This document shows positions 8,696 to 64,000 of a stretch of 64,000 nt of DNA, piece after piece. The position numbers and the translations under genes were made by a program. Location: assembly GCA_035285405.1 (NCBI GenBank), contig JAYKJI010000366.1:5823-69822 (forward strand). Direction: 5' to 3'. The first letter of the stretch is position 1, and each line of letters starts with the position of its first letter. This DNA is from Snowella sp. (lineage in GTDB: Bacteria; Cyanobacteriota; Cyanobacteriia; Cyanobacteriales; Microcystaceae). Under the pieces are notes generated by a model. The model had not been told where the DNA came from. It saw only the letters and a program-made list of their open reading frames with translations, and ran no database searches.

Positions 8696-9298
8696 ATGGC
8701 ATACAGTCAGTTCACCTTTAGTAAAGTCAAGGAACAGTTTGATCTCACGATCGCGGAAGGTATCCGCTTTTTTCCTGAGACTATTTCCCCAGTAGCTCCA
8801 AGCCAAAAACTGCTGGCAATTTTGGAAGATCTACCCTGGGTGATCGCTGTTGATACGGAAAAAGCTCGTTCTGAGGTCATTATTAATCCGATATTGTTAG
8901 AGCTAAGACGGATACTTAATCAAAAAATTAGTATTTTTTCAGGAGAAGAATTTAGTGTTGATCCTGGGATGGGACTGACTGGATTTTGTGACTTTTTAGT
9001 GAGTAAATCACCAGAACAATTAGCCATAGAAGCCCCTACGATCATCATTGTAGAAGCTAAAAAAGCAGATTTAAAAGTTGGAATCGGACAATGTATTGCA
9101 GAAATGGTGGCAGCACAAAAATTTAATCAGGCCAGCGATCGCCAAATTTCGGCAGTATATGGTTGCATCAGCAGTGGAACACAGTGGCGATTTCTCAAAC
9201 TAGAAGATTCAGTTGCCACCATTGATTTAACGGATTATCCTTTACTTCCTGTAGATATTATTCTTGGTTTTTTTGTCTGGATGATCAAAGAGGGTTAA
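8696..9298 (+). CDS. hypothetical protein, PD-(D/E)xK nuclease-like (paralog C, more divergent)
   Basis: 200-aa ORF. 'FCDFLVSKSPEQLAIEAPTIIIVEAKKADLKVGIGQCIAEM' has the same architecture. Roughly 45% identity to A/B by eye. Confidence 0.6.
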   Translation: MAYSQFTFSKVKEQFDLTIAEGIRFFPETISPVAPSQKLLAILEDLPWVIAVDTEKARSEVIINPILLELRRILNQKISIFSGEEFSVDPGMGLTGFCDFLVSKSPEQLAIEAPTIIIVEAKKADLKVGIGQCIAEMVAAQKFNQASDRQISAVYGCISSGTQWRFLKLEDSVATIDLTDYPLLPVDIILGFFVWMIKEG

Positions 9299-9338
9299 TT
9301 CCCATAACGGACAAAATCATTTTTCATGGAGACATTTA

Positions 9339-9974
9339 ATGACCTTTCAAAACTACGAATACCAGTGGCAAAGTTCCCAAGCTGTACATTCCCATAGCTT
9401 TTATGCCCCTGTTCTTTTGTCTATGTTCCCCTCTCCCCCTAGTCAATCAGGACACCCACTAAAAGTGCTTGATTTGGGCTGTGGTAACGGTAGCTTAACT
9501 AACTTAATTTGCAATCAAGGCTTTGAGGTAACAGGAATAGAAGAGTCAAAATCTGGAGTCGAAATAGCCACTAAAACCTTTCCTAACTGTCGTTTTCTAC
9601 AACAAAACCTTTACTCTCCTCCCCCCCCCGAACTCTTGAACTATTTTGATATAGTGGTTTCATCGGATGTCATTGAACACCTCTTTTATCCCAGAGAATT
9701 AGCCCGTTTTGCAAAACAATGTCTAAAGCCAACAGGCCAGCTAATTATCACAACACCTTACAATGGTTATTTAAAAGATCTTGTTTTATCTTTACTTAAT
9801 GGTATGGATCGCCATCATACAGTCCTCTGGGATGGTGGACATATTAAGTTTTTCTCGGTAAAAACCCTTTCTCAATTGCTTCAAGAAGAAGGTTTTGCGG
9901 ATTTGCGGTTTAAATTTGCTGGGCGTTTACCCTACCTCTGGAAAGGTATGTTAGTGTCCGCTCGGTTAAAATAA
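9339..9974 (+). CDS. class I SAM-dependent methyltransferase
   Basis: 211-aa ORF. Canonical motif I 'VLDLGCGNGSL' and 'DIVVSSDVIEHL'. It contains a C9 homopolymer at 9620-9628. Confidence 0.75.
   Translation: MTFQNYEYQWQSSQAVHSHSFYAPVLLSMFPSPPSQSGHPLKVLDLGCGNGSLTNLICNQGFEVTGIEESKSGVEIATKTFPNCRFLQQNLYSPPPPELLNYFDIVVSSDVIEHLFYPRELARFAKQCLKPTGQLIITTPYNGYLKDLVLSLLNGMDRHHTVLWDGGHIKFFSVKTLSQLLQEEGFADLRFKFAGRLPYLWKGMLVSARLK
9620..9628 (+). repeat. C9 homopolymer tract inside the methyltransferase CDS (encodes part of the PPPP run)
   Basis: Direct read: t-ccccccccc-g at 9619-9629. Confidence 0.9.
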
Positions 9975-9983
9975 AACTCAACG

Positions 9984-10436
9984 ATGCCCAGTTTCCTTGC
10001 TCTGTTACCCAGAGCCTTGACTACTTTCTTGTATGCCGTTGCTGCTCTACTCAGATTTTATGGAAACACAGACACCGCCCCCTTCCCCCAACTGCCCTTT
10101 ACCCTCCTCGACTACAGTCTCCTGGCCTTTGCGCTGGGGACAGGGTCTCTCATGGTTAATCTCGGCCTTGAGTGGAACGCTGGAAATCGAAGCCGAAACC
10201 GAGAGATTGAAGCAAGAGAACGCGAGATTAAACGCGATGATTTTGCAAACGAGGAAAGAGAAAGGGCAGATCGAGAACGAAACCAAGCAGATCGAGAAAG
10301 AGAACGAGCGGCTCGCCGAGCTAGAATCCAAAATCGATTCACTGTTCTCCAAATACGGTATCACCTCGAACCTAGTGAACAAACCCAAGCAGCCTTAAAA
10401 GACTTTCTTGCTTTCCTCGAAGAGTATGTTGAGTAA
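9984..10436 (+). CDS. hypothetical protein with hydrophobic N-terminus and highly charged R/E-rich helical segment
   Basis: 150-aa ORF and the longest of several overlapping frames. The N-terminal hydrophobic stretches and the structured-looking C-terminus ('ALKDFLAFLEEYVE') favour this frame. Confidence 0.4.
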   Translation: MPSFLALLPRALTTFLYAVAALLRFYGNTDTAPFPQLPFTLLDYSLLAFALGTGSLMVNLGLEWNAGNRSRNREIEAREREIKRDDFANEERERADRERNQADRERERAARRARIQNRFTVLQIRYHLEPSEQTQAALKDFLAFLEEYVE

Positions 10437-11814: not shown

Positions 11815-12603
11815 ATGAATCTCGATAAAATTACCCCCTTAATACTAACTTATAATGAAGCACCAAATATTCAACGAACGTTAGAAAATTTAGCATGGGC
11901 AAAGCAAATTGTTATCATTGACAGCTTTAGTACTGACAAAACTCTAGACATCTTAAAAAAATTTAAGCAAATTATCCTCTTCCAAAAACAATTTGAGTCT
12001 TTTGCCGATCAATGTAACTATGGCCTGTCAAAAATTGTTAGCGAATGGGTATTATCTCTAGATGCAGACTATCTCGTAACAAAGGAGCTAATTCAAGCCA
12101 TTCAGCTTTTACCAGATCAAACATTAGTTAATAGTTTTAGAGTACAATTCAAGTATTGTGTGTTTGGAAAACCATTACAAGGAACTCTTTTACCACCTCG
12201 CAAAGTTCTCTATAGAGGTAAATATGCAAAGTATAGCAATGATGGTCATAGTCATAAGGTGATTGTTGATGGTTTATCTGAGCAACTTTCTGGATATATT
12301 TATCATGACGATCGCAAACCATTAAGTCGCTGGCTTTGGGCCCAAGATCGTTACATGATCCTAGAGACCCAAAAGTTACTAAACACACCTAATGCAGAGC
12401 TAAGTATTGGTGATAAAATTAGAAAATTTAAGATTTTCTCTCCTTTTATTGTATTTTTTTACTGCTTATTTCTAAAAAAAGGTATTTTGGATGGATGGGA
12501 AGGCTGGTACTATGCAATGCAACGTATGTTAGCAGAAACTTTACTCGTTATTCATTTGATAGAAGCTGAAAAGCTTGGTAATAAACCTCAATCGTTAGAG
12601 TAA
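11815..12603 (+). CDS. glycosyltransferase family 2
   Basis: 262-aa ORF. The N-terminus 'ILTYNEAPNIQRTLENL...IIDSFSTDKT' and 'SLDADY' (DxD-like) fit GT2. Confidence 0.75.
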   Translation: MNLDKITPLILTYNEAPNIQRTLENLAWAKQIVIIDSFSTDKTLDILKKFKQIILFQKQFESFADQCNYGLSKIVSEWVLSLDADYLVTKELIQAIQLLPDQTLVNSFRVQFKYCVFGKPLQGTLLPPRKVLYRGKYAKYSNDGHSHKVIVDGLSEQLSGYIYHDDRKPLSRWLWAQDRYMILETQKLLNTPNAELSIGDKIRKFKIFSPFIVFFYCLFLKKGILDGWEGWYYAMQRMLAETLLVIHLIEAEKLGNKPQSLE

Positions 12604-12608
12604 TTCTT

Positions 12609-13616
12609 GTGTCTAATCTAAAACAAAGCCCTTGTATTTTGGTAACTGGTGGAGCTGGTTATATTGGTTCCCATACTGTTTTGGCTCTAAAAGAGAAGGG
12701 TTATTCTGTCATTGTCTTAGATAATTTAATCTATGGACACCAAGACTTAGTAAACAATGTTCTGGCAGTTCCTTTCATACATGGAGATATTAGCGATCGC
12801 GCTTTACTAGACAACCTTTTCTCCACCTATAATATTCATGCTGTTATTCATTTTGCCGCCTATGCCTATGTAGGTGAATCGGTTGAAGATCCTAGCAAAT
12901 ATTATAGAAATAACATGGTAGGTACATTAACGCTTCTCGAAGCCATGTTAGCTGCAAATATCAAAAAATTTGTTTTCTCTTCTACCTGCGCTACCTATGG
13001 AGTTCCAACGGTTTTACCCATCCCGGAAACCCATGCTCAAAACCCCATCAATCCCTATGGGGCAAGTAAGTTAATGGTAGAGAGAATGCTTCAGGATTTT
13101 GATAAAGCCTATGGTTTAAAGTCAGTTATTTTCCGTTACTTTAATGCGGCAGGAGCTGATCCAAATGGTCGCTTAGGAGAAGATCATCAGCCTGAAACTC
13201 ATTTAATTCCCCTCACTTTGCTCACTGCTTTAGGGCAACGCTCAACCATTAATATCTATGGAAACGATTATGTCACTCCTGATGGAACTTGCATTCGAGA
13301 CTATATTCATGTTTATGATTTAGCGATCGCTCATATTCTTGGCTTAGAATACTTACTCAATAATAAAGAAAGTAACATTTTTAACCTCGGTAATGGCAGT
13401 GGTTTTTCTGTTAAGGAAGTAATTGAAACAGCTCGTCAAATTACTCAAAAAACGATTACAGCCATCGAATCACCTCGTCGAGAAGGCGATCCTCCGATTC
13501 TAGTCGGTAGTGGTGAAAAAGCCCGAAAATATTTGGGATGGCAACCACAATATATTGCCTTAAGCGACATTATTTCTCATGCTTGGCAATGGCACCAAAT
13601 TCGGCACTCATTCTAA
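12609..13616 (+). CDS. galE: UDP-glucose 4-epimerase
   Basis: 335-aa ORF with a GTG start. 'VTGGAGYIGSH', 'SSTCATYG' and 'YGASKLMVE' (YxxxK) are all present, and the full-length GalE pattern holds. Confidence 0.9.
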   Translation: MSNLKQSPCILVTGGAGYIGSHTVLALKEKGYSVIVLDNLIYGHQDLVNNVLAVPFIHGDISDRALLDNLFSTYNIHAVIHFAAYAYVGESVEDPSKYYRNNMVGTLTLLEAMLAANIKKFVFSSTCATYGVPTVLPIPETHAQNPINPYGASKLMVERMLQDFDKAYGLKSVIFRYFNAAGADPNGRLGEDHQPETHLIPLTLLTALGQRSTINIYGNDYVTPDGTCIRDYIHVYDLAIAHILGLEYLLNNKESNIFNLGNGSGFSVKEVIETARQITQKTITAIESPRREGDPPILVGSGEKARKYLGWQPQYIALSDIISHAWQWHQIRHSF

Positions 13617-21884: not shown

Positions 21885-22535
21885 TTAAAAGTCTTGGGGG
21901 TCAATACCCATCTCCTGTAACTTTTGGGCTAATCGTAATGCACTTTCCTCGGCTGTTGGGACTAGTTTGCCCCGGGGGGTGAAAAAGCGCAGTTGTCCAT
22001 TCTTAATCCCCAGAAATAATTGCAATTGCTGGCTCCATAAATAACCTTGCTCATTGGCTTCTAGTGACTGATACTGTCCCCCCACAAGCTGAAAACCTTG
22101 AAATTCAAAGCTGTTAGGGTCAAACCAGAAATAGTCAGGAGTCCGAAAAATATCTTGATAAATTTGTTTCTTTAAACCCCGATCCGTCTCAGCAGTACTA
22201 TCAGAGAGAATTTCGATAATCACATGGGGATACTGTCCCCCCTCTTGCCAGACCACCCAACTCGGACGGGGTTTACGCTCTGTTCCCAAGACCACGAAAA
22301 AATCTGGCCCACGAAAAAATTCTGATTTACGTTGTTGAGGACTGTCATAAATCGTTAAGTTCCCCGCCGCAAAAAAATCGGAGCGATCGCGCCACCACCA
22401 TTCTAGGCACTTGAGTAGTAGGATCATTTGCTGAAGATGAAGATAGGTTTCCACTGGTGGTTCATCACTAAGCAAATCTCCAGGCGGAAAAACAATTTTC
22501 TCAGACAGTCTAGGGATTTCTAGCGCAATAGACAT
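21885..22535 (-). CDS. Uma2 family endonuclease
   Basis: 'PHVIIEILSDSTAETDRGLKKQIYQDIFRTPDYFWFDP' is the Uma2 core. The ATG at 22535 is preceded by GGAGA, whereas the track ORF starts at 22574. The C-terminal tail 'LAQKLQEMGIDPQDF' resembles that of the 10477 copy. Confidence 0.8.
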   Translation of the reverse strand: MSIALEIPRLSEKIVFPPGDLLSDEPPVETYLHLQQMILLLKCLEWWWRDRSDFFAAGNLTIYDSPQQRKSEFFRGPDFFVVLGTERKPRPSWVVWQEGGQYPHVIIEILSDSTAETDRGLKKQIYQDIFRTPDYFWFDPNSFEFQGFQLVGGQYQSLEANEQGYLWSQQLQLFLGIKNGQLRFFTPRGKLVPTAEESALRLAQKLQEMGIDPQDF

Positions 22536-22674
22536 AAGGATTATCTCCGCTAGGATGACGGTTATACAAGACAATGTATTGATTCTAACTCACCGAGTTT
22601 GAGGTCTGGAAGATTTAAGCTATAGTCGGGTATCAGTTCTTTTCGGCCCCTATTAATTGCTTAAGGAAAGCTCG

Positions 22675-51761: not shown

Positions 51762-52346
51762 TTATGTCAATTCTGATTCAAAAGAAACTTTGTCATAAAT
51801 ATCTGCCAAGCTGATTTCAAAGGGGATAGTACTTAATTTTAGAAGGGTATCTTCCCCCTCTAACTCTGAAAAAATCCATTGATGGGACTCAATTTTATAA
51901 TACTGTTCAATATGTATGGAATATTGATCAATTAATAAGTATTCTTGAAACCCCATAATAGTACGATAAAACTTAAATTTTTCACCTTGATCATAGCTCT
52001 GGGTTGATTTCGATAAAACCTCAACAATGACCAAAGGATTGGTTATTGTATCTTTTCTGCCGGTCTGTAACTCTATTTGACCTTGTACCACCATGATATC
52101 AGGATAAGTGTAAATCCGTCGTTGTGGTATCCAAAGTCGCTGATCGGTGACAAAAACCCAATAAGGTTGACGTTTAAGGGCAAAATTTAAGGCCGCAGAA
52201 ATGTTGCCAATGATTAGATTGTGATTGAGCATTCCTACGGTCATGGGAATAATTTCTCCATTAATATACTCGTTGCGTTCCTGGGACTGAATCTCAAGTT
52301 CCAAGTATTTTTCGGGCGTGTAATAGTCGTATTCTTTGGCTTGCAT
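51762..52346 (-). CDS. Uma2 family endonuclease
   Basis: 'YPDIMVV' and 'LVIVEVLSKSTQSYDQGEKFKFYRTIMGFQEYLLIDQ' are present. Confidence 0.8.
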   Translation of the reverse strand: MQAKEYDYYTPEKYLELEIQSQERNEYINGEIIPMTVGMLNHNLIIGNISAALNFALKRQPYWVFVTDQRLWIPQRRIYTYPDIMVVQGQIELQTGRKDTITNPLVIVEVLSKSTQSYDQGEKFKFYRTIMGFQEYLLIDQYSIHIEQYYKIESHQWIFSELEGEDTLLKLSTIPFEISLADIYDKVSFESELT

Positions 52347-56539: not shown

Positions 56540-57115
56540 TTATTCTAATGTCAGTACAAGACCCCGATAGACTTGCTCAATCGCAAAGCTAAGATTAATA
56601 CTTTTGAGTTCGATGGTATCTCCTGCTTGATAGTTAATGATAATCCATTCATTGTTATCTTTTCGATGATATAAGTCTATTTCGATGCTGGTTGAACTGA
56701 CTAATAAATAATCTTGTAAGTTGGGATTATTGCGATACATTCTAAATTTGCCACCGCGATCGTAGGCTTCAGTGCTGGGGGATAGAACTTCGACAATTAA
56801 GCAGGGATAGGTAATATATTGGGTTGTAGTTTTATCGCGATCGTCACAGGTGACGCTAACATCGGGGTAGGTATAGTTATTGGTTCCAGCAATATTAACT
56901 CTTAGGTCTGAGTTACCTGTTTCGCAGCCACTTGTTTCTAGATGATTAGAAAATAAGGTAATAAATCTGACAGAGATTAAGCTATGGTTTTTACTGCCAC
57001 CGCTCATCGCATAAACTTCACCATTAATATATTCGTGTTTTTCTAGTTGTTGTTCTTCCCAGCCAAAATATTCTGCTGGGGTAAGTTGGGGAAAGTTTTC
57101 TTTGGCTGCGGTCAT
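56540..57115 (-). CDS. Uma2 family endonuclease
   Basis: 'YPDVSVTCD' and 'CLIVEVLSPSTEAYDRGGKFRMYRNNPNLQDYLLV' are present. The likely start is the ATG at 57115 (MTAAKENF). Confidence 0.8.
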   Translation of the reverse strand: MTAAKENFPQLTPAEYFGWEEQQLEKHEYINGEVYAMSGGSKNHSLISVRFITLFSNHLETSGCETGNSDLRVNIAGTNNYTYPDVSVTCDDRDKTTTQYITYPCLIVEVLSPSTEAYDRGGKFRMYRNNPNLQDYLLVSSTSIEIDLYHRKDNNEWIIINYQAGDTIELKSINLSFAIEQVYRGLVLTLE

Positions 57116-57141
57116 TGTTAATTTACTCCGTAACATTTATA

Positions 57142-57276: not shown

Positions 57277-60200
57277 TTAAGCAGCGTTATCTTGCTTCAG
57301 GCGTTGATAAACATTCTTCATCATAAGTTCTTTAACTAAATTCCCAAATGATTGGTCTTCCAGAATTTTTTCAAAAATCTCTTGGTTTTGCTCCATTCGT
57401 TCAATCAGTTTTTCCAGAAATGTTTCCTCAAAGGCAAATTTAAAGGTGTCAAGCTTGTTGGCTTTAGCCTGAGTTTGTAACTTTTCATCTTCTATCAACT
57501 CTGCCTCTATTTGCTCAAAAAATAGGCGATCTGCTTCTTCAAAGTCTGTGCCGAAACGCTCATTGAGTTTTTCGATAATGATGGATAAGGGGGCTTTTTC
57601 CTCTTTGGGCCGTTTAATACCTGCTTCAGTGACCGTTTCAAGTTCTCCGATTTCGCCTTTAACTAAATCAATTGACCCTTCTTTGATTTTTTCCAGGCGA
57701 TAATATTCAAGGGCAATTTCATCTACTAGCCGTACAGTATCCCCAAGGCTCCGTTTTGGTAATTTAGTTAAAAGTAACTTGGCATAGGCAAAGAATTTTT
57801 CAAGTTCTGCATCGCGGAAGGGCATAATCTGAGCCAAAAATGAATACAGGTTTGTCCATGTCCGCAGGCTCTTTTTGAATTCGTCCTGTTTATCTTCTGT
57901 TTCAAGGGCTTTATAACGCTCACAAGCGGGTTCCAATATTGCATAAAGTTGACTTTGAGCTTTCACTGTCATTTTAGTTTTAGGGTCAAAATAAATCTTG
58001 GCAAAAGTGTTAATTTCTGAGGTGAGATAAATCTGATATTGATCTAGTTTTCCCTTGAGGTCGTAGAGATGGTTGGGATTAGGTTCTTCTTTTAGAGTCG
58101 TTAATTCGTAATAGGGTTGGAAAGATTCAAGGATTGTTTCACGACTGTTCACAAAATCAAGAATGAATGTGTCTTCTTTACCTGGTGCTGTACGATTTAA
58201 GCGAGATAGGGTTTGGACGGCTTTAACCCCTGCTAAAGGTTTGTCCACATACATGGTGTGGAGGAGGGGTTGATCAAAGCCTGTTTGATATTTATCGGCA
58301 ACGATTAGGATTTTGTATTCGTCTTGTTCAAAAATTTTGGGGAGTTCTTTAATGCCAAAGCCTGTAAGTTGAGGTTCGCTCACACCATCTGGGTATTTTT
58401 CATCAGGAAATTCGGAGTCTTTTACTTTGCCAGAAAATGCTACTAAAATTTTGATTTCTTTGCTATAACCTTTTTCTTTAATGTAGTAGTTAAATTCCTC
58501 GAAGTAGCGTTTGGCATGGAGGCGGGATGAGGTGACGACCATTGCTTTTGCTCTGCCCCCAATTTTATGGGCGACACAGGTACGGAAATGCTCGATGATA
58601 ATTGCAGTTTTTTGGGCAAGATTATGAGGATGGAGGGATACAAATCTGGCGATCGCCTTAGCGGTCTTTTTTTTGTTTAATTCGGGGTCATCTTCTATGG
58701 CTTTGGATAGTTTTAAATAAAGTTCGTAGGTGGTGTAATTCTGTAAAACATCGAGAATAAAGCCTTCTTCAATGGCTTGGCGCATGGAGTAGAGATGGAA
58801 AGGTTCAGGTTGACCTTGACGGTTTTTCTGTCCGAAAATGGCAAGAGTTTTGGGTTTGGGAGTAGCGGTAAACGCGGAAAAGGAAATATTGGCTTGTTTC
58901 CCTCTCGTTTTAGCGGATCGGTCGGCATATTCGTCGATCAAATCTTCTGCTGTATAGTCTTCTGCTTGGTCTTCTGTCGCAGCTTCTTCGAGGGTTTGAG
59001 CCGTTAGGACTTCTTTAAGTTTTTTTGAGGATTCTCCTCCTTGAGAACTGTGGGCTTCGTCAATAATGACGGCATAGCGACGGTCTGGAAGGGTTCCAAT
59101 TTTATCGACTACATAGGGAAATTTTTGTAAGGTGGTAATAATAATGTTGGTACTGTTAGTGATTGCTTCTGCTAGTTGGTTAGCATCTTTGTCAATTTTT
59201 TGGACGACTCCCGCTTTATGTTCAAACTGATAGATGGTGTCTTGGAGTTGGCTATCAAGAACCAAACGATCGGTAATGACAATGACGCTGTTAAAAATTC
59301 GTTCATCTTGACTGTTATGCAGTCCAGATAGGCGATAGGCAAGCCAGGCGATTGAATTACTTTTCCCTGAACCTGCGGAATGTTGAATTAAATAATTATG
59401 CCCTGCACCATTATCCCTGGCATGGTGAGTTAGTTTCCGAACGGCATCAAGTTGATGGAACCGAGGAAAAATGAGGTTTTCTTTTTTGTGGGTGCGTCCT
59501 TCAAATTCGTATTCTTCAATTTGGAGATGAACAAATCGCCCCAGGATTTCCAGCCAACTATCTTTGACTAAAATTTTTTGCCAGAGATATTCGGTTCGGT
59601 AGCCGTCAGGATTGGGAGGATTGCCTTGGCCGTTTTGATAACCTTGTTTGAAGGGAAGCCAATAGGTTTTATCTCCATTAATACGGGTGGTCATATAGAC
59701 TTCTTCGTCATCAACCGCAAAATGAACCAATGCCCGTTTTTTGAAGGTAAATAATAATTCTTGATGGTCGCGGGTGGTGTTGTATTGTTTCTGAGCGTTT
59801 TTGGTGTTTTGTCCTGTGAATTGATTTTTGAGTTCGAGAGTGGCAACGGGTAAACCATTGAGAGATAAAACTAAGTCAACAGATTGTTTAGTTTTACTAC
59901 TGAAATAAACTTGGCGGGTAACGGTGAGGCGATTTTGTTGGTAGAGCTTGATAGTATCTGGGTTTAGTCCTGATTCGGGTTTAAAATAGGCAAGTTTGAA
60001 CTTTACGCCATAGTCGGTAATGCCATTGCGAATGACATCAAGGGAACCGCGCAAATCCATTTCTTTGTAGAGACGTTGAATAAATTTACTTTCAACTTCT
60101 GCACCATGAATTTTAGCCAGTTTCTCCCATTGCTTCGGCTGGCTTTTTTGTATGAATTCCAATACTCCAGCCTTGAACATACCCAGTTCGGCACTGTAGT

Positions 60201-60297
60201 CACTAGCATCACCTTCGGTATAGTCACCAAACTCAAGTAAGTTTTCAATAATGGCGGTTTCAAACGTTTTTTCTGATGTAATAGAATTCATAGTCAT
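57277..60297 (-). CDS. hsdR: type I restriction enzyme R subunit
   Basis: 1006 aa. The N-terminal nuclease motif is 'VDLVLSLNGLPVATLELKNQ'. Helicase motif I is 'HSAGSGKSNS' and motif II is 'VIIDEAHSSQ'. Motif VI 'QTLSRLNR' is present. Confidence 0.95.
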   Translation of the reverse strand: MTMNSITSEKTFETAIIENLLEFGDYTEGDASDYSAELGMFKAGVLEFIQKSQPKQWEKLAKIHGAEVESKFIQRLYKEMDLRGSLDVIRNGITDYGVKFKLAYFKPESGLNPDTIKLYQQNRLTVTRQVYFSSKTKQSVDLVLSLNGLPVATLELKNQFTGQNTKNAQKQYNTTRDHQELLFTFKKRALVHFAVDDEEVYMTTRINGDKTYWLPFKQGYQNGQGNPPNPDGYRTEYLWQKILVKDSWLEILGRFVHLQIEEYEFEGRTHKKENLIFPRFHQLDAVRKLTHHARDNGAGHNYLIQHSAGSGKSNSIAWLAYRLSGLHNSQDERIFNSVIVITDRLVLDSQLQDTIYQFEHKAGVVQKIDKDANQLAEAITNSTNIIITTLQKFPYVVDKIGTLPDRRYAVIIDEAHSSQGGESSKKLKEVLTAQTLEEAATEDQAEDYTAEDLIDEYADRSAKTRGKQANISFSAFTATPKPKTLAIFGQKNRQGQPEPFHLYSMRQAIEEGFILDVLQNYTTYELYLKLSKAIEDDPELNKKKTAKAIARFVSLHPHNLAQKTAIIIEHFRTCVAHKIGGRAKAMVVTSSRLHAKRYFEEFNYYIKEKGYSKEIKILVAFSGKVKDSEFPDEKYPDGVSEPQLTGFGIKELPKIFEQDEYKILIVADKYQTGFDQPLLHTMYVDKPLAGVKAVQTLSRLNRTAPGKEDTFILDFVNSRETILESFQPYYELTTLKEEPNPNHLYDLKGKLDQYQIYLTSEINTFAKIYFDPKTKMTVKAQSQLYAILEPACERYKALETEDKQDEFKKSLRTWTNLYSFLAQIMPFRDAELEKFFAYAKLLLTKLPKRSLGDTVRLVDEIALEYYRLEKIKEGSIDLVKGEIGELETVTEAGIKRPKEEKAPLSIIIEKLNERFGTDFEEADRLFFEQIEAELIEDEKLQTQAKANKLDTFKFAFEETFLEKLIERMEQNQEIFEKILEDQSFGNLVKELMMKNVYQRLKQDNAA

Positions 60298-60315
60298 TCT
60301 GCCTCGTCGAGACTT

Positions 60316-61695
60316 TTAGTTTGTTGTTTGATCTAGTTGAGGAACTTTAATTTTGCCTGTAACGGCTTCGCTAATCAGGGCGGTGCGATATTCTTTTTGG
60401 AGTTCGATAATACGTTTGGTTTTGGCAATTTTGGCATCAATGTGAGCCGTTTCTTTTTCGATATATTCGCTAATCGCCTTTTGTTCTTCAAGGGGAGGAA
60501 ATGGAATAGAAATCTCTCTAATACTATCAATTTGTAAGTATGCCTGGTTTGCTATCCAAAGAGCCATAGCATCGAACTTACAGCGAATATATTTACTTTT
60601 AAAACAGTAGTTTAAGTATTCTTTTTTGCAAAAAGATAGTGGTCTAATACAAACAATATTTTGATTTAAATAAGCGCGATTGAAATTATGGCTAATGATA
60701 CCAACTTGACCAACGGCTGAATTGACTACATCTGGTTTACTTCCAACAGTAGAAACCACAATATCTCCCGATGCAAGTCTAACTTTTTCAAATTCTTCTT
60801 GCTGATTATCAATTGCGATATAACTTGATCCGCTTTGGATACTACCATTTTTAATATCACTAGCTTTTACGATAGGAATGCCCGACTCGTTAAATTCACT
60901 AGATTTGAATCCTAAACCTTTAAAATATGTTGTTACATTTCTTATTTTCTGAATGTCCCAATGTTCAGGAATATCGCCAAGCCAATTGATCGCCGTCGGT
61001 TTTAATTTTACATCGGGGTTAATGCCTTTGGTGACAGCTTCATTGATAATCGCGGTTTTCTCTTCTTCGTACAGTTCGATCAGTCTTTCCTTTTGGGCGA
61101 TCAGTTGGTCAATCTCTGCGGTTTTGCGATCAAGGTAGGCGGCGATCGCCCTTTGTTCTTCAGGAGGAGAAAATGAAATTTTAATGTTAAGAAATTCTTC
61201 TTGCCCTAAATTTTTCATACTTGAGCTTGTACCTGTAGCTAATATTGATAACAATTCTCTAAACGATGAGCTTTTTAGAACAAAACTTAACCATTTTGTA
61301 TGAATATCTAAATTCTCAAAAAAGACTGTTTGCCAAAGTCGATCAGGCAAAAATAGATAATCGTAATCTTTTTCTACATAGCCACTTGCACCAACTAACT
61401 CTGGAGTATTCATTCGACTAATAATAATTGCACCCTTTTTAGGATTTACTTTTGCTCTATCAAGCTCCAAAGATAGTATTTCTTTATTTTCTTGAGGTTC
61501 AAAAACATATTTATAAACACAACTTGTTTTTAAGATTCCATAGCTCCCTTTAGATACAGGAATATCAATGGAATTAACACTTACTCCTGATTCCAAAGAC
61601 TTAATCAGATACTTTAATTTTTTGATTTTCCAATGCTCAGGAATCTCACCAAGCCAAGCAATGCCACTATCCTTATACTTTTCATACCGTTCCAT
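60316..61695 (-). CDS. hsdS: type I restriction-modification specificity subunit
   Basis: 459 aa with two target-recognition halves, each opening with 'WLG(E/D)IPEHW'. The central and C-terminal conserved helices are 'EEQRAIAAYLDRKTAEID' and 'EEQKAISEYIEKETAHID'. Confidence 0.9.
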   Translation of the reverse strand: MERYEKYKDSGIAWLGEIPEHWKIKKLKYLIKSLESGVSVNSIDIPVSKGSYGILKTSCVYKYVFEPQENKEILSLELDRAKVNPKKGAIIISRMNTPELVGASGYVEKDYDYLFLPDRLWQTVFFENLDIHTKWLSFVLKSSSFRELLSILATGTSSSMKNLGQEEFLNIKISFSPPEEQRAIAAYLDRKTAEIDQLIAQKERLIELYEEEKTAIINEAVTKGINPDVKLKPTAINWLGDIPEHWDIQKIRNVTTYFKGLGFKSSEFNESGIPIVKASDIKNGSIQSGSSYIAIDNQQEEFEKVRLASGDIVVSTVGSKPDVVNSAVGQVGIISHNFNRAYLNQNIVCIRPLSFCKKEYLNYCFKSKYIRCKFDAMALWIANQAYLQIDSIREISIPFPPLEEQKAISEYIEKETAHIDAKIAKTKRIIELQKEYRTALISEAVTGKIKVPQLDQTTN

Positions 61696-61697
61696 AA

Positions 61698-62039
61698 CTA
61701 AGCCACTCCATAACCTGAAAATTGACGCATAAACGGAGAATGTAACCCCAAAACAATATCCTCTTTCTTGACCCCTAAAGCCATCAACCTTTCCCCCAAA
61801 TCAAGATCCGTAAAATTCCGTTGAATCCAAACCTTCTCATCCCTAATATCAATATGAATATAAGGCGAATAAACATACTCCTTTCCCTTCCAGCCCACAT
61901 CTAAATAAAGATAATGATCCCCCTCCTTATCTAAGATTAATTCAGAAAAAAGATTTTCTTCCTTCTGAGATTGACTATAACCATAAATTTCCTGTAAAAC
62001 AGAAACCACCGCATGACGTAATAACGCTAACTTATCCAT
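61698..62039 (-). CDS. xisI: XisI family protein (copy 2)
   Basis: 113 aa. 'MDKLALLRH...DKEGDHYLYLDVGW...HIDIRDEKVWIQRN...EDIVLGLHSP' matches the XisI pattern. It overlaps the xisH stop by 13 nt. Confidence 0.85.
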   Translation of the reverse strand: MDKLALLRHAVVSVLQEIYGYSQSQKEENLFSELILDKEGDHYLYLDVGWKGKEYVYSPYIHIDIRDEKVWIQRNFTDLDLGERLMALGVKKEDIVLGLHSPFMRQFSGYGVA

Positions 62040-62440
62040 TGTCTGATAACCCCCAATTCTGGATCATAAATAATTAATTTTATATTTTGTTGTTGGATAA
62101 CAGCCTGAGCAAATTCAGATTGCAAAAAAGTATCATAAATCACATCAGGAACCGCTAAGAACAAATCCCGATCAGGCTCCAACTCATCCAACATAACCCT
62201 ATAATTCACAAACTGCCCCACCGCTACATGAAAAGCGAACATGGGAGAAATATCAGAAAAAGTTTTAATTTCAACCGCAATTTTTTTCTCCTGTTTAATG
62301 GCAGTTAATAATTTTTCAGCACCTAAATCAATATAGGTCGTCGCCTTTCCCCATTTCAAGAAAAACGGATCATCCGTCACGATCCACCCCTCCTGTTCCA
62401 AAGCTTTCCTCACCACATCATGAAAAATGTCCTTTGCCAT
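62027..62440 (-). CDS. xisH: XisH family protein (endonuclease-like fold)
   Basis: 137 aa. 'MAKDIFHDVVRKALEQEGWIVTDDP...YIDLGAEKLL...KIAVEIKTF' has the XisH N-terminus with a D...ExK arrangement. Confidence 0.85.
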   Translation of the reverse strand: MAKDIFHDVVRKALEQEGWIVTDDPFFLKWGKATTYIDLGAEKLLTAIKQEKKIAVEIKTFSDISPMFAFHVAVGQFVNYRVMLDELEPDRDLFLAVPDVIYDTFLQSEFAQAVIQQQNIKLIIYDPELGVIRQWIS

Positions 62441-62444
62441 AATT

Positions 62445-62780
62445 TTAAGCTACTCCATAATCAGTATAAGGACGTTTATGGGGAGCCTGTAACCCTAAAA
62501 CAATATCCAGTCGTTCAACCCCCATCGTCACCAAATCCTCAGCAGGATTAAGATCCGTTGCATTTTGCTGAAGCCAGATCTTGCCATCCTTAATATCAAA
62601 ATGAATAATCGTAAAATAAATCCGTTGAGAACCATTCCAACCCACATAGACCCAAAGATAATGATCTCGTTCCTGATCAAAAATCAATTGAGATTCTCGA
62701 TCCTTTTTCTTCCGCTCATCCGTATCATAACGAGTCAACAAATCCCGAATCAATTGACAATAAAAAGTTAGTTTATCCAT
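62445..62780 (-). CDS. xisI: XisI family protein (copy 1)
   Basis: 111 aa. 'MDKLTFYCQLI...DQERDHYLWVYVGW...HFDIKDGKIWLQQN...LDIVLGLQAPHKRPYTDYGVA'. Confidence 0.85.
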   Translation of the reverse strand: MDKLTFYCQLIRDLLTRYDTDERKKKDRESQLIFDQERDHYLWVYVGWNGSQRIYFTIIHFDIKDGKIWLQQNATDLNPAEDLVTMGVERLDIVLGLQAPHKRPYTDYGVA

Positions 62781-62784
62781 TGCA

Positions 62785-64000
62785 CTAAATCCCCTTCTCT
62801 AACTCAAGACTACTCTGCTCCAATGCCAAAATGTCCGCCCGAATTTCCGCCAAACTCCGTAACGGTTTGAACTCATAAAAATACTTCGTGAAATTAATCT
62901 CATAACCCGTCTTCGTCTTACTCTCATCAATCCAAGCATCGGGTACATGGGGCAAAACCTCCCGCTCAAAATACTCGGCGATCGTTTGTTGTACTAACTG
63001 CTTATCCCCATCTTCTCGCAAAAACGGAATATTTTCATAATCCCGTAGATCAGCATCTGGCTTAGGCTTACCCTTACTTTTGATCACCTTGCCGTTCTCA
63101 TCCCGTAACGGCTGTTCCACCGTCACCCGCCAATAGCCAAAAAATTCATTCGGGACAATCTTTACAAACTCCCCCTCCACAAAATCCCCGTAAAGCTTGG
63201 TAATAAAACCAATCCCCTTCGTTTCCCCATTTTCAGGAATCTGTTTACGCTTATTTCCTAAAGAACGGCTCATCTTTTCCCAAAAGCGATTAAAGTCCCG
63301 CTTACCTGCTGTCATCAACTCCTCATCCTTAGTCCCCGTCGCATTGATTAACTGCACCTTGCCTCGCCGTTCTGGACTTTTATCATTACTGAGAATCCAA
63401 ATATAAGTCGAAATACCCGTGTTATAAAAAAGTTGATCAGGCAAAGCAATAATTGCCTCCAACCAATCCTTTTCAATAATCCACTGACGAATATTACTTT
63501 CGCCGCCCCCCGCCTGACCCGTAAACAATGGAGAACCATTAAAGACAATACCGATACGACTCCCACCGTCCTCCTCTGGCTTCATCTTTGAGATCATGTG
63601 CTGAAGGAAAAGCAACGACCCGTCATTAATACGAGGCAATCCAGCCCCAAACCGACCCGCATAACCGAAGTCTTCCGCTTCCTTCTTAATCGTTTTCTCT
63701 GCCTTTTTCCAATCCACCCCAAACGGCGGATTTGAGAGCAGATAATCAAACGTCTCATCCCGTAACCCGTCCACCGTAAAGGTATTGCCAAACTTGATAT
63801 TGCTGGGGTTCTGACCCTTGATTAACATATCCGACTTACAAATGGCGTAGGATTCGGGGTTAATTTCCTGCCCAAAAACTTCCAACTTGGCATCAGGGTT
63901 AAAATCCATCAAATGTTGATCCGCAATAGACAGCATTCCCCCCGTTCCACAAGCTGGATCATAGAGTGTTTTGATAATGCCTTTTTGGGTCAAAGCTTGG
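62785..64000 (-). CDS. hsdM: type I restriction-modification N6-adenine DNA methyltransferase subunit (5' end outside window)
   Basis: Motif I 'YDPACGTGGML' and motif IV 'LSNPPFG' are present. The frame remains open to the window edge, so the Met at 63993 is internal. Confidence 0.95.
   Translation of the reverse strand, partial: QALTQKGIIKTLYDPACGTGGMLSIADQHLMDFNPDAKLEVFGQEINPESYAICKSDMLIKGQNPSNIKFGNTFTVDGLRDETFDYLLSNPPFGVDWKKAEKTIKKEAEDFGYAGRFGAGLPRINDGSLLFLQHMISKMKPEEDGGSRIGIVFNGSPLFTGQAGGGESNIRQWIIEKDWLEAIIALPDQLFYNTGISTYIWILSNDKSPERRGKVQLINATGTKDEELMTAGKRDFNRFWEKMSRSLGNKRKQIPENGETKGIGFITKLYGDFVEGEFVKIVPNEFFGYWRVTVEQPLRDENGKVIKSKGKPKPDADLRDYENIPFLREDGDKQLVQQTIAEYFEREVLPHVPDAWIDESKTKTGYEINFTKYFYEFKPLRSLAEIRADILALEQSSLELEKGI

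Follow-up and report, generated by a model that had tools for sequence, protein, structure and literature searches.

We analysed a stretch of 64,000 nucleotides of contig JAYKJI010000366.1, from a metagenome-assembled genome (MAG) of Snowella sp.; "the window" refers to this whole stretch. Near one end it carries genes of the XisH and XisI families (together xisHI) between hsdM and hsdS of a type I restriction-modification (R-M) operon. Comparison with sister operons indicates that this cassette amounts to one and a half xisH-xisI pairs, left after a deletion of nearly all of a first xisH gene, and that the place it occupies is a cargo slot, filled in related operons mostly with defence and toxin genes. 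Among xisH-xisI pairs of other genomes and plasmids, the gene for the putative nuclease XisH was found broken or lost next to a surviving xisI far more often than the reverse. We give a probability of about 45% to the reading that the pair is here a self-contained nuclease-antidote-like module, a further type of cargo for slots of this sort.

The six genes of the operon lie on the minus strand in the order hsdM, xisI-a, xisH, xisI-b, hsdS and hsdR; successive genes are 4, 4, -13, 2 and 18 nt apart. This order and these spacings, proposed previously from the letters alone (the sequence-only reading), were reproduced exactly from the open reading frame (ORF) list and from the junctions. The hsdM gene (62785 to beyond 64000) continues past the window end and is represented by its 404 3' codons (Pfam N6_Mtase, 1.6e-45; PADLOC MTase_I, 1.4e-170). 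It is followed by xisI-a (62445-62780, 111 aa; Pfam XisI, 4.8e-41), xisH (62027-62440, 137 aa; Pfam XisH, 8.7e-50), xisI-b (61698-62039, 113 aa, the cognate XisI of xisH; Pfam XisI, 1.4e-34), hsdS (60316-61695), coding for a specificity subunit with two target-recognition domains (Pfam Methylase_S, 3.9e-24; PADLOC Specificity_I, 4.7e-114), and hsdR (57277-60297), coding for a restriction/translocase subunit of 1006 aa that combines nuclease and motor domains with a D3-like one (Pfam HSDR_N, SWI2_SNF2, ResIII and T1R_D3-like; PADLOC REase_I, 6.4e-44). All six family assignments were well over the Pfam cut-offs, and PADLOC recognised the hsd trio as type I methyltransferase, specificity subunit and restriction endonuclease. 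HsdM, HsdS and HsdR are all encoded in this one cluster, which is apparently intact. The same xisI-xisH-xisI order was present in a separately assembled contig of 4.7 kb (L001, from Logan).

On the coding strand, the junction between hsdM and xisI-a reads TAG-TGCA-ATG, that between xisI-a and xisH reads TAA-AATT-ATG and that between xisI-b and hsdS reads TAG-TT-ATG; xisH and xisI-b overlap by 13 nt (ATGGATAAGTTAG), the start of xisI-b lying within the final 13 nt of xisH. Since junctions of 2-4 nt leave no space for a promoter or terminator of its own, the cassette would share the hsdM-hsdS transcript, in agreement with what the sequence-only reading had claimed, and both the cassette and hsdS probably depend on the hsdM promoter. 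A scan for such signals found 22 promoter-like sites as compared to 19.3 in shuffled sequence, and 7 terminator-like sites as compared to 7.3, hence no excess, and none of them in the gene junctions; at this background level, the scan is uninformative beyond the lack of any obvious isolation of the cassette.

The history of the cassette could be followed in a sister operon found on four contigs from at least three samples (L170-L172), which were reached via a protein 98% identical to XisI-b. Here the gene order is hsdM-xisH1-xisI1-xisH2-xisI2-hsdS-MNT-HEPN-hsdR. In terms of amino acid identity, the XisH of the window corresponds to XisH2 of L170 (98.5%), XisI-b to XisI2 (98.2%) and XisI-a to XisI1 (94.6%). 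The blastn alignment between the window and L170, with 96% nucleotide identity, stops at L170 position 8848 and restarts at 9245, with a 10-nt stretch common to both pieces, and the approximately 397 nt absent from the window are nearly all of xisH1. The microhomology at the junction is AAGGGGGTTTT at the end of hsdM and AAGGAGGTTTA at the end of xisH1. The resulting scar (62768-62796, minus strand) comprises the microhomology junction (about 62786-62796) and the terminal codons of xisH1 (..LVQWIN*, 62768-62789), which have been retained in the window, overlap the start of xisI-a and make up the present stop codon of hsdM. HsdM proteins of this family end in ..ELEKxVLx*, a consensus to which the L170 protein conforms (..EKGVLN*) and the shortened window protein does not (..EKGI*). 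The polarity of the event is therefore clear, the deletion having taken place in the window.

As read from this alignment, the comparison shows an ancestral state with two different xisH-xisI pairs in tandem, the first xisH having been removed by a deletion of about 397 nt between short similar sequences. On the same evidence the window cassette consists of one complete pair and half of another, and xisI-a is an orphan, the former partner of the deleted xisH1. The sequence-only reading had described two divergent XisI paralogs flanking XisH. The divergence was confirmed, given that the XisI-a and XisI-b proteins are 42% identical and belong to two sub-families with a distinct C-terminal motif (XisI-a being of the '..HPPYKRPYTGYGVA-type'), but the three genes are not a designed unit, the upstream xisI being the leftover of a second pair. 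A tandem xisH-xisI-xisH-xisI arrangement, which in L170 spans positions 8860-10342, was also seen in L007 (794-2322).

The operon that holds the cassette is a mosaic. With respect to L170, hsdM is 96% identical in nucleotides, and HsdM, which is cut by the window end, is 97.5% identical in amino acids to the 604-aa L170 protein. HsdS is only 44% identical and its framework segments are conserved, which points to an exchange of the recognition domains, and the 5' end of hsdR is 82% identical in nucleotides. With its gap of 18 nt, the slot between hsdS and hsdR is empty in the window; in L170 it is occupied by the MNT and HEPN genes, confirmed by Pfam as NTP_transf_2 and HepT-like, so that MNT-HEPN and xisHI fill the two slots of one operon.

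The use of these slots was followed in 80 metagenomic loci with an HsdM 75-84% identical to that of the window, 64 of which also show hsdS. The hsdM and hsdS genes abut in 24 of these 64 sister operons, with an overlap of 4 or 1 nt, and are separated by 98-2564 bp in 40, almost always with ORFs on the same strand. The cargo of this slot consisted of RhuM (15 cases), Abi_2 (4), GmrSD (4), Fic (4), the DUF1016/YhcG PD-(D/E)XK nuclease (4), HATPase_c_3 (4), AAA_13 (3) and AAA_21 (3), together with DUF4062, DUF4411 with Peptidase_M78, and Bro-N. The hsdS|hsdR slot was filled in 34 of 41 operons, with SIR2_2, HerA, RloB together with AAA_21, GmrSD, DUF4145 and Schlafen/AlbA_2 among the contents (23 families were matched among 53 proteins). 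In operons with this type of HsdM, the space between hsdM and hsdS is thus a cargo slot, used mostly by defence and toxin genes, and in both the window and L170 xisHI is nested in it on the same strand. The statement of the sequence-only reading that type I hsd loci host extra effectors held well in these sister operons and in L170 with its MNT-HEPN pair. In addition, most of the sister operons (L094-L169, with hsdS|hsdR gaps of about 1 kb) have a same-strand ORF of about 325-345 aa between hsdS and hsdR. These ORFs mostly lack a Pfam match and may represent an accessory gene, conserved but uncharacterised, of this R-M family.

Cargo between hsd genes is an arrangement of an already known kind, and xisHI is a new cargo in it. 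The prrC gene is located within EcoprrI (PMC12707154), DarTG2 lies between hsdS and hsdR in enteropathogenic Escherichia coli, at a site called a potential recombination hot spot (PMC12255303), and PIN-type toxins were found next to hsdM/hsdS and transcriptionally coupled to them (PMC5499597). That a gene is embedded in a type I R-M locus is accepted as predicting a function in defence (Payne et al., 2024, bioRxiv 10.1101/2024.01.29.577857).

XisH matched the profile PF08814 over its full length with 168.8 bits (cut-off 25) and, in phmmer, the solved structure 2okf (6.1e-38); 2inb was likewise matched. Its AlphaFold2 model (mean confidence, pLDDT, of 87) superposes on 2okf and 2inb with a template modelling (TM) score of 0.90. 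Outside its own family, the model resembles only proteins with the restriction-endonuclease fold, namely PaqCI, the nickase N.BspD6I, R2 endonuclease domains, Cdn1 and McrC. The D...ExK motif that had been pointed out in XisH proved to be intact, as D38 (in IDLGAE) and E57-x-K59 (in AVEIK) are invariant across 27 diverse homologues, and the model backs the endonuclease fold that had been deduced from it; we accordingly describe XisH as a PD-(D/E)XK nuclease-fold protein. The two XisI proteins matched PF08869 with 140 (XisI-a) and 119 (XisI-b) bits, as compared to a cut-off of 25. XisI-a matched the PDB entry 2nlv (2.3e-45), and the XisI model fits the XisI structures 2nlv, 3d7q, 2nvm and 2nwv with a TM score of about 0.9. 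The idea that XisI is a highly acidic DNA mimic was rejected, since its isoelectric point of about 5.1-5.5 makes it only mildly acidic. The ratio of nonsynonymous to synonymous substitution rates (dN/dS) was 0.12 for xisI-a, 0.12 for xisH, 0.08 for xisI-b and 0.07 for hsdM. The orphan xisI-a is, on this measure, still under purifying selection.

The wider family was examined in a scan of one genome per species, which gave at least 596 XisH-encoding stretches; the best 80 of them were taken with 10-kb flanks, and this sample is ranked by similarity to the window XisH and is not random. An xisI gene follows xisH in essentially every one of the 80 loci where the contig permits, and the two genes overlap by exactly 13 nt in 72 of 77 pairs. 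Stand-alone modules are preceded by an AT-rich gap of about 130-200 nt. The flanks of 77 modules showed no conserved DNA motif or terminal repeats (about 0.1 bit per position), and nothing resembling an att site or an operator. The repeats seen around the cassette of the window, considered as a possible signal of mobility, only reflect the likeness of the two xisI genes. Several xisHI modules can share one genome or locus, and 40 cyanobacterial plasmids carry xisHI. Among 2.9 million viral contigs, 2 had a match to XisH, and a set of 50,697 phage records had none; a phage origin was accordingly rejected. The layout is that of a toxin-antitoxin (TA) system in that the two genes are small, adjacent, co-oriented and translationally coupled, and the pair is multi-copy and plasmid-borne.

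The 145 immediate neighbours of these modules were assigned to 191 Pfam families, mostly housekeeping (response regulators, ABC transporters, glycosyltransferases). The commonest was Uma2 (6 of 145), while N6_Mtase and Methylase_S occurred twice each. Defence neighbours recognised by PADLOC, a DISARM DrmA (L037) and a DpdF-like helicase (L013), were present in a minority of loci. A type I R-M context was found in three of the 80 loci, with the order hsdM-xisH-xisI-hsdS..hsdR in L002 and L004 and hsdM-hsdS-xisH in L032, and the HsdM proteins of these three are about 40% identical to that of the window. The closest relatives of the window XisH lie elsewhere. The 76% identical homologue of Roseofilum (L082/L083, 10001-10752), which is the nearest one on a long contig, is separated by 10 nt from a pyruvate kinase gene and by 26 nt from a squalene-hopene cyclase gene, with no promoter; a 69% identical homologue is flanked by cobW and a histidine kinase gene, and a 66% identical one adjoins DUF5648 and Uma2 genes. 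No xisHI was present in the 80 sister operons with an HsdM 75-84% identical to that of the window.

In this survey, R-M and defence genes were a minority among the neighbours, and the specific coupling to R-M that the sequence-only reading had suggested is not supported, because the closest XisH relatives are outside R-M loci. A conserved R-M-embedded xisHI lineage was likewise rejected, given the 40% identity of the L002 and L004 HsdM proteins and the closer XisH relatives outside R-M. As side observations, a slot near the Roseofilum module holds VapBC in one strain and DUF433 with a small ORF in the other, and in L013 (10001-11742) a convergent pair of xisHI modules, each with one stop codon, adjoins the DpdF-like helicase gene. 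Some XisH homologues bear wrong names in public records ('fatty-acid oxidation protein subunit alpha', 'glucose-6-phosphate 1-dehydrogenase'), which are propagated annotation errors.

The two genes of the pair do not decay alike. In the 80 genome loci, 73 modules were intact. A stop codon in xisH next to an intact xisI was found in five modules (L013b, L030, L035, L054 and L056) and the reverse in one (L013a); in L060, xisH is truncated and xisI absent. These loci had been chosen for good XisH matches, a bias that opposes the observed trend. On plasmids, xisI without xisH was present in seven records, and an intact xisH without an annotated xisI in none. The surroundings of these orphan plasmid xisI genes include VapBC, CopG/PIN, Phd/VapC and DNA methyltransferase genes. 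In two conjugative-type plasmids of Nostocales (L174, CP150887.1, 6363-7330; L175, NC_019772.1, 4363-5330) there is a 4-nt overlap between the orphan xisI and the end of a gene for a 213-aa protein with a weak N6_Mtase/Eco57I-methylase match, and the surrounding gene block, including a DEAD/DEAH helicase gene, is conserved between the two. XisI may have partners other than XisH. A solitary xisI was also found in L173, and the window itself has lost xisH1 and kept xisI-a. In total, the nuclease gene was lost or broken with xisI kept in about 14 cases, with about 3 cases of the reverse; the counts are small and the samples of mixed origin. Such a pattern would be expected of an XisH that does harm in the absence of XisI, and it is unexpected for equal subunits of a benign complex.

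In this mosaic operon, xisH-xisI is carried as cargo between hsdM and hsdS and is probably transcribed solely within the hsdM-hsdS message. According to the reading that we prefer, XisH would be a minimal PD-(D/E)XK nuclease, and XisI a stoichiometric, translationally coupled partner that holds the nuclease harmless. The pair would behave as a toxin-antidote module of the addiction or abortive-infection type, and would persist because loss of xisI is worse than loss of xisH. It would spread through chromosomes and plasmids independently of any recombinase and accumulate where cargo varies, as in the slots of hsd operons, which it would share with Abi, GmrSD, Fic and MNT-HEPN genes. Within the operon, the pair might stabilise the locus or act as a back-up effector, and the R-M enzyme would not be needed for its function.

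Several observations weigh against this reading. The asymmetry of decay has counter-examples, namely L013a, L089 (intact xisH with a split xisI) and possibly L060, and some of the stop codons may be MAG assembly errors. The fold search of the PDB with XisI found no structural neighbour beyond the XisI family, and hence no functional lead, and no recognisable DNA-binding fold of the helix-turn-helix or ribbon-helix-helix type. XisI, without a DNA-binding domain and with no conserved operator-like motif upstream of the 77 modules, does not look like an autoregulating antitoxin. In addition, the nuclease gene precedes that of its partner, which is the less common order among type II TA systems, and the mean column identity of XisH and XisI (60-64%) is unusually high for a TA pair. 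XisI has many invariant polar residues (H62, D64, K69, Q73, N75, T77 and R105), which could mark an enzyme or a targeting subunit instead of a plain inhibitor. The only genetic data for the family concern excision of the fdxN element (Ramaswamy 1997). Finally, XisH and XisI are not named in the text or the 11 supplementary files of the guilt-by-embedding study (bioRxiv 10.1101/2024.01.29.577857), PADLOC has no model for either of them, and our literature searches found no paper tying the family to TA or defence. The suggestion of the sequence-only reading that xisHI is a TA-like module rather than an excision factor gained support from the lopsided decay; the lack of a DNA-binding fold in XisI, its strong conservation and the gene order point away from a classical antitoxin.

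The same strong conservation of XisI and its many invariant polar residues would fit an obligate two-subunit nuclease, in which XisI is an activating, targeting or sensing subunit and the nuclease would not be toxic by itself. It could be, for example, a small stand-alone nuclease that serves defence in the manner of restriction or Abi systems, or one that is structure-specific or acts in DNA repair. The strict translational coupling in 72 of 77 pairs, the lack of an antitoxin-type DNA-binding fold and the equally strong purifying selection on both genes point in this direction, as does the joint and positive action of XisH and XisI in Anabaena described in PMC4853749 and PMC4874684. What such an enzyme leaves unexplained is that xisI survives alone far more frequently than xisH, that the orphan xisI-a has remained under purifying selection after the loss of its xisH, and that orphan xisI genes occur among VapBC, PIN and Phd genes on plasmids; we regard it as an unlikely explanation, though one to be taken seriously. 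Less probable still is a guardian like PrrC in EcoprrI, with XisH-XisI tied physically or functionally to HsdMS(R) and set free once the restriction enzyme is inhibited by a phage. The precedent of PrrC is well established (PMC12707154), and the promoter-less, tight embedding of xisHI recurs in three unrelated type I families, with a gap of 3-4 nt in the window and L170, an 8-nt overlap of xisH with hsdM in L002 and L004, and a position 33 nt past hsdS in L032; stand-alone modules, by contrast, have the long upstream gaps reported above. The orphan xisI that overlaps a small N6_Mtase-like gene on two conjugative-type plasmids would also agree with such a role. However, only three R-M contexts were found among 80 loci, in a sample biased towards relatives of the window XisH, the three closest homologues are in housekeeping contexts, the 80 sister operons lack xisHI, and tight embedding was also observed in a non-defence operon, between the pyruvate kinase and squalene-hopene cyclase genes. 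Moreover, guardians of the PrrC type occur almost only as embedded genes of type I R-M loci (bioRxiv 10.1101/2024.01.29.577857), which is not the case for xisHI.

The classical role of XisH and XisI, as recombination directionality or accessory factors that assist a large serine recombinase of the XisF kind with its gene elsewhere in the genome, seems to us very improbable for the window pair. No other function of the family has been shown by experiment (Ramaswamy 1997; Hwang 2014; both as described in PMC4853749 and PMC4874684). One related locus has the corresponding layout: in L042 (8384-10737, chromosome of Aliinostoc sp. HNIBRCY26, Nostocales) xisH-xisI is preceded, at a distance of 54 nt, by an ORF for a 520-aa serine recombinase, in what is presumably the classical xisF-xisH-xisI layout of an element of the fdxN type. 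The gamma-delta-resolvase probe can therefore detect an XisF-like ORF, but it found no serine recombinase in the 64-kb window, nor within 10 kb of the other 79 of the 80 related modules. The window xisHI lies between intact hsdM and hsdS genes, with no interrupted gene at the locus; the sequence-only reading had likewise noted neither a recombinase nor an interrupted gene here. A dedicated excision factor would also hardly be expected in tandem modules of different sub-types, or in many copies per genome or plasmid. Snowella is placed in Synechococcales and, to our knowledge, the genus does not form heterocysts. The weight that is left goes to a functionless passenger or to an explanation that we have not considered.

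Compared with the fdxN system (XisF-XisH-XisI) of Anabaena/Nostoc PCC 7120, the window pair has the same families (PF08814 and PF08869), the same xisH-then-xisI order and the overlap. It differs in that it has no XisF-type recombinase or interrupted gene at its locus and no heterocystous host, and in that it is embedded in an hsd operon, originally as two tandem pairs of different sub-types. With PrrC in EcoprrI and the rlo genes (RloA/RloB/RloC) of Campylobacter hsd loci it shares the presence of an extra nuclease-type gene among type I R-M genes, apparently co-transcribed with them, and the slots of the sister operons do hold AAA_13, which we take to be the Pfam family of PrrC, and RloB together with AAA_21. 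The folds are unrelated, with ABC-ATPase plus HEPN in PrrC and PD-(D/E)XK in XisH, and most xisHI pairs stand alone, in contrast to the nearly constant embedding of PrrC. The survey of locus contexts gave no evidence linking xisHI to the R-M enzyme.

The embedded TA modules DarTG2, the MntA-HepT-type MNT-HEPN of L170 and the PIN-type systems are likewise small, two-gene, overlapping units in inter-hsd slots. For DarTG and MntA-HepT the toxin and antitoxin activities are demonstrated, whereas XisH and XisI would have such roles only by deduction, and neither a known antitoxin fold nor a known enzymatic means of neutralisation is found in XisI. Like the guilt-by-embedding candidates (Payne et al., 2024; PADLOC PDC), xisHI is an uncharacterised cassette nested in a type I R-M locus; unlike them, it is rarely embedded and is not among the published candidates or the PADLOC v2 models.

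Cyanobacteria and Beggiatoaceae carry dozens of orphan xisH-xisI pairs per genome, which have been unexplained since the 1990s. The known function of xisHI requires a recombinase that most pairs are without, and the interest of the present locus lies mainly in a testable function for these many orphans. Three new observations, that is the occupancy of a defence-cargo slot, the operon shared with MNT-HEPN in the sister contigs, and a decay that spares xisI, lead to the hypothesis of a nuclease toxin with its antidote. In its widest form, which we put forward tentatively and hold to be possible rather than probable, XisH-XisI would be a widespread unrecognised nuclease-antidote (TA/abortive-infection) family of cyanobacteria and other filamentous bacteria, the fdxN role being a secondary co-option of one copy, and would act as a second-line effector or locus stabiliser when nested in hsd operons. 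If this is true, a family based on PD-(D/E)XK would be added to the TA and defence repertoire and the annotation "element excision factor" would have to be corrected; if the hypothesis fails, the cassette would be one more passenger in a recombination hot spot.

Uma2 (PF05685) genes, which also adjoin some of the related modules, are present three times on the minus strand of the window (56540-57136, 51762-52346 and 21885-22574). The first of them lies 140 nt downstream of hsdR, and Uma2 matches the PADLOC candidate PDC-S03. In L002, the other xisHI-bearing R-M operon, two Uma2 copies occupy the hsdS|hsdR slot (12218-13407).

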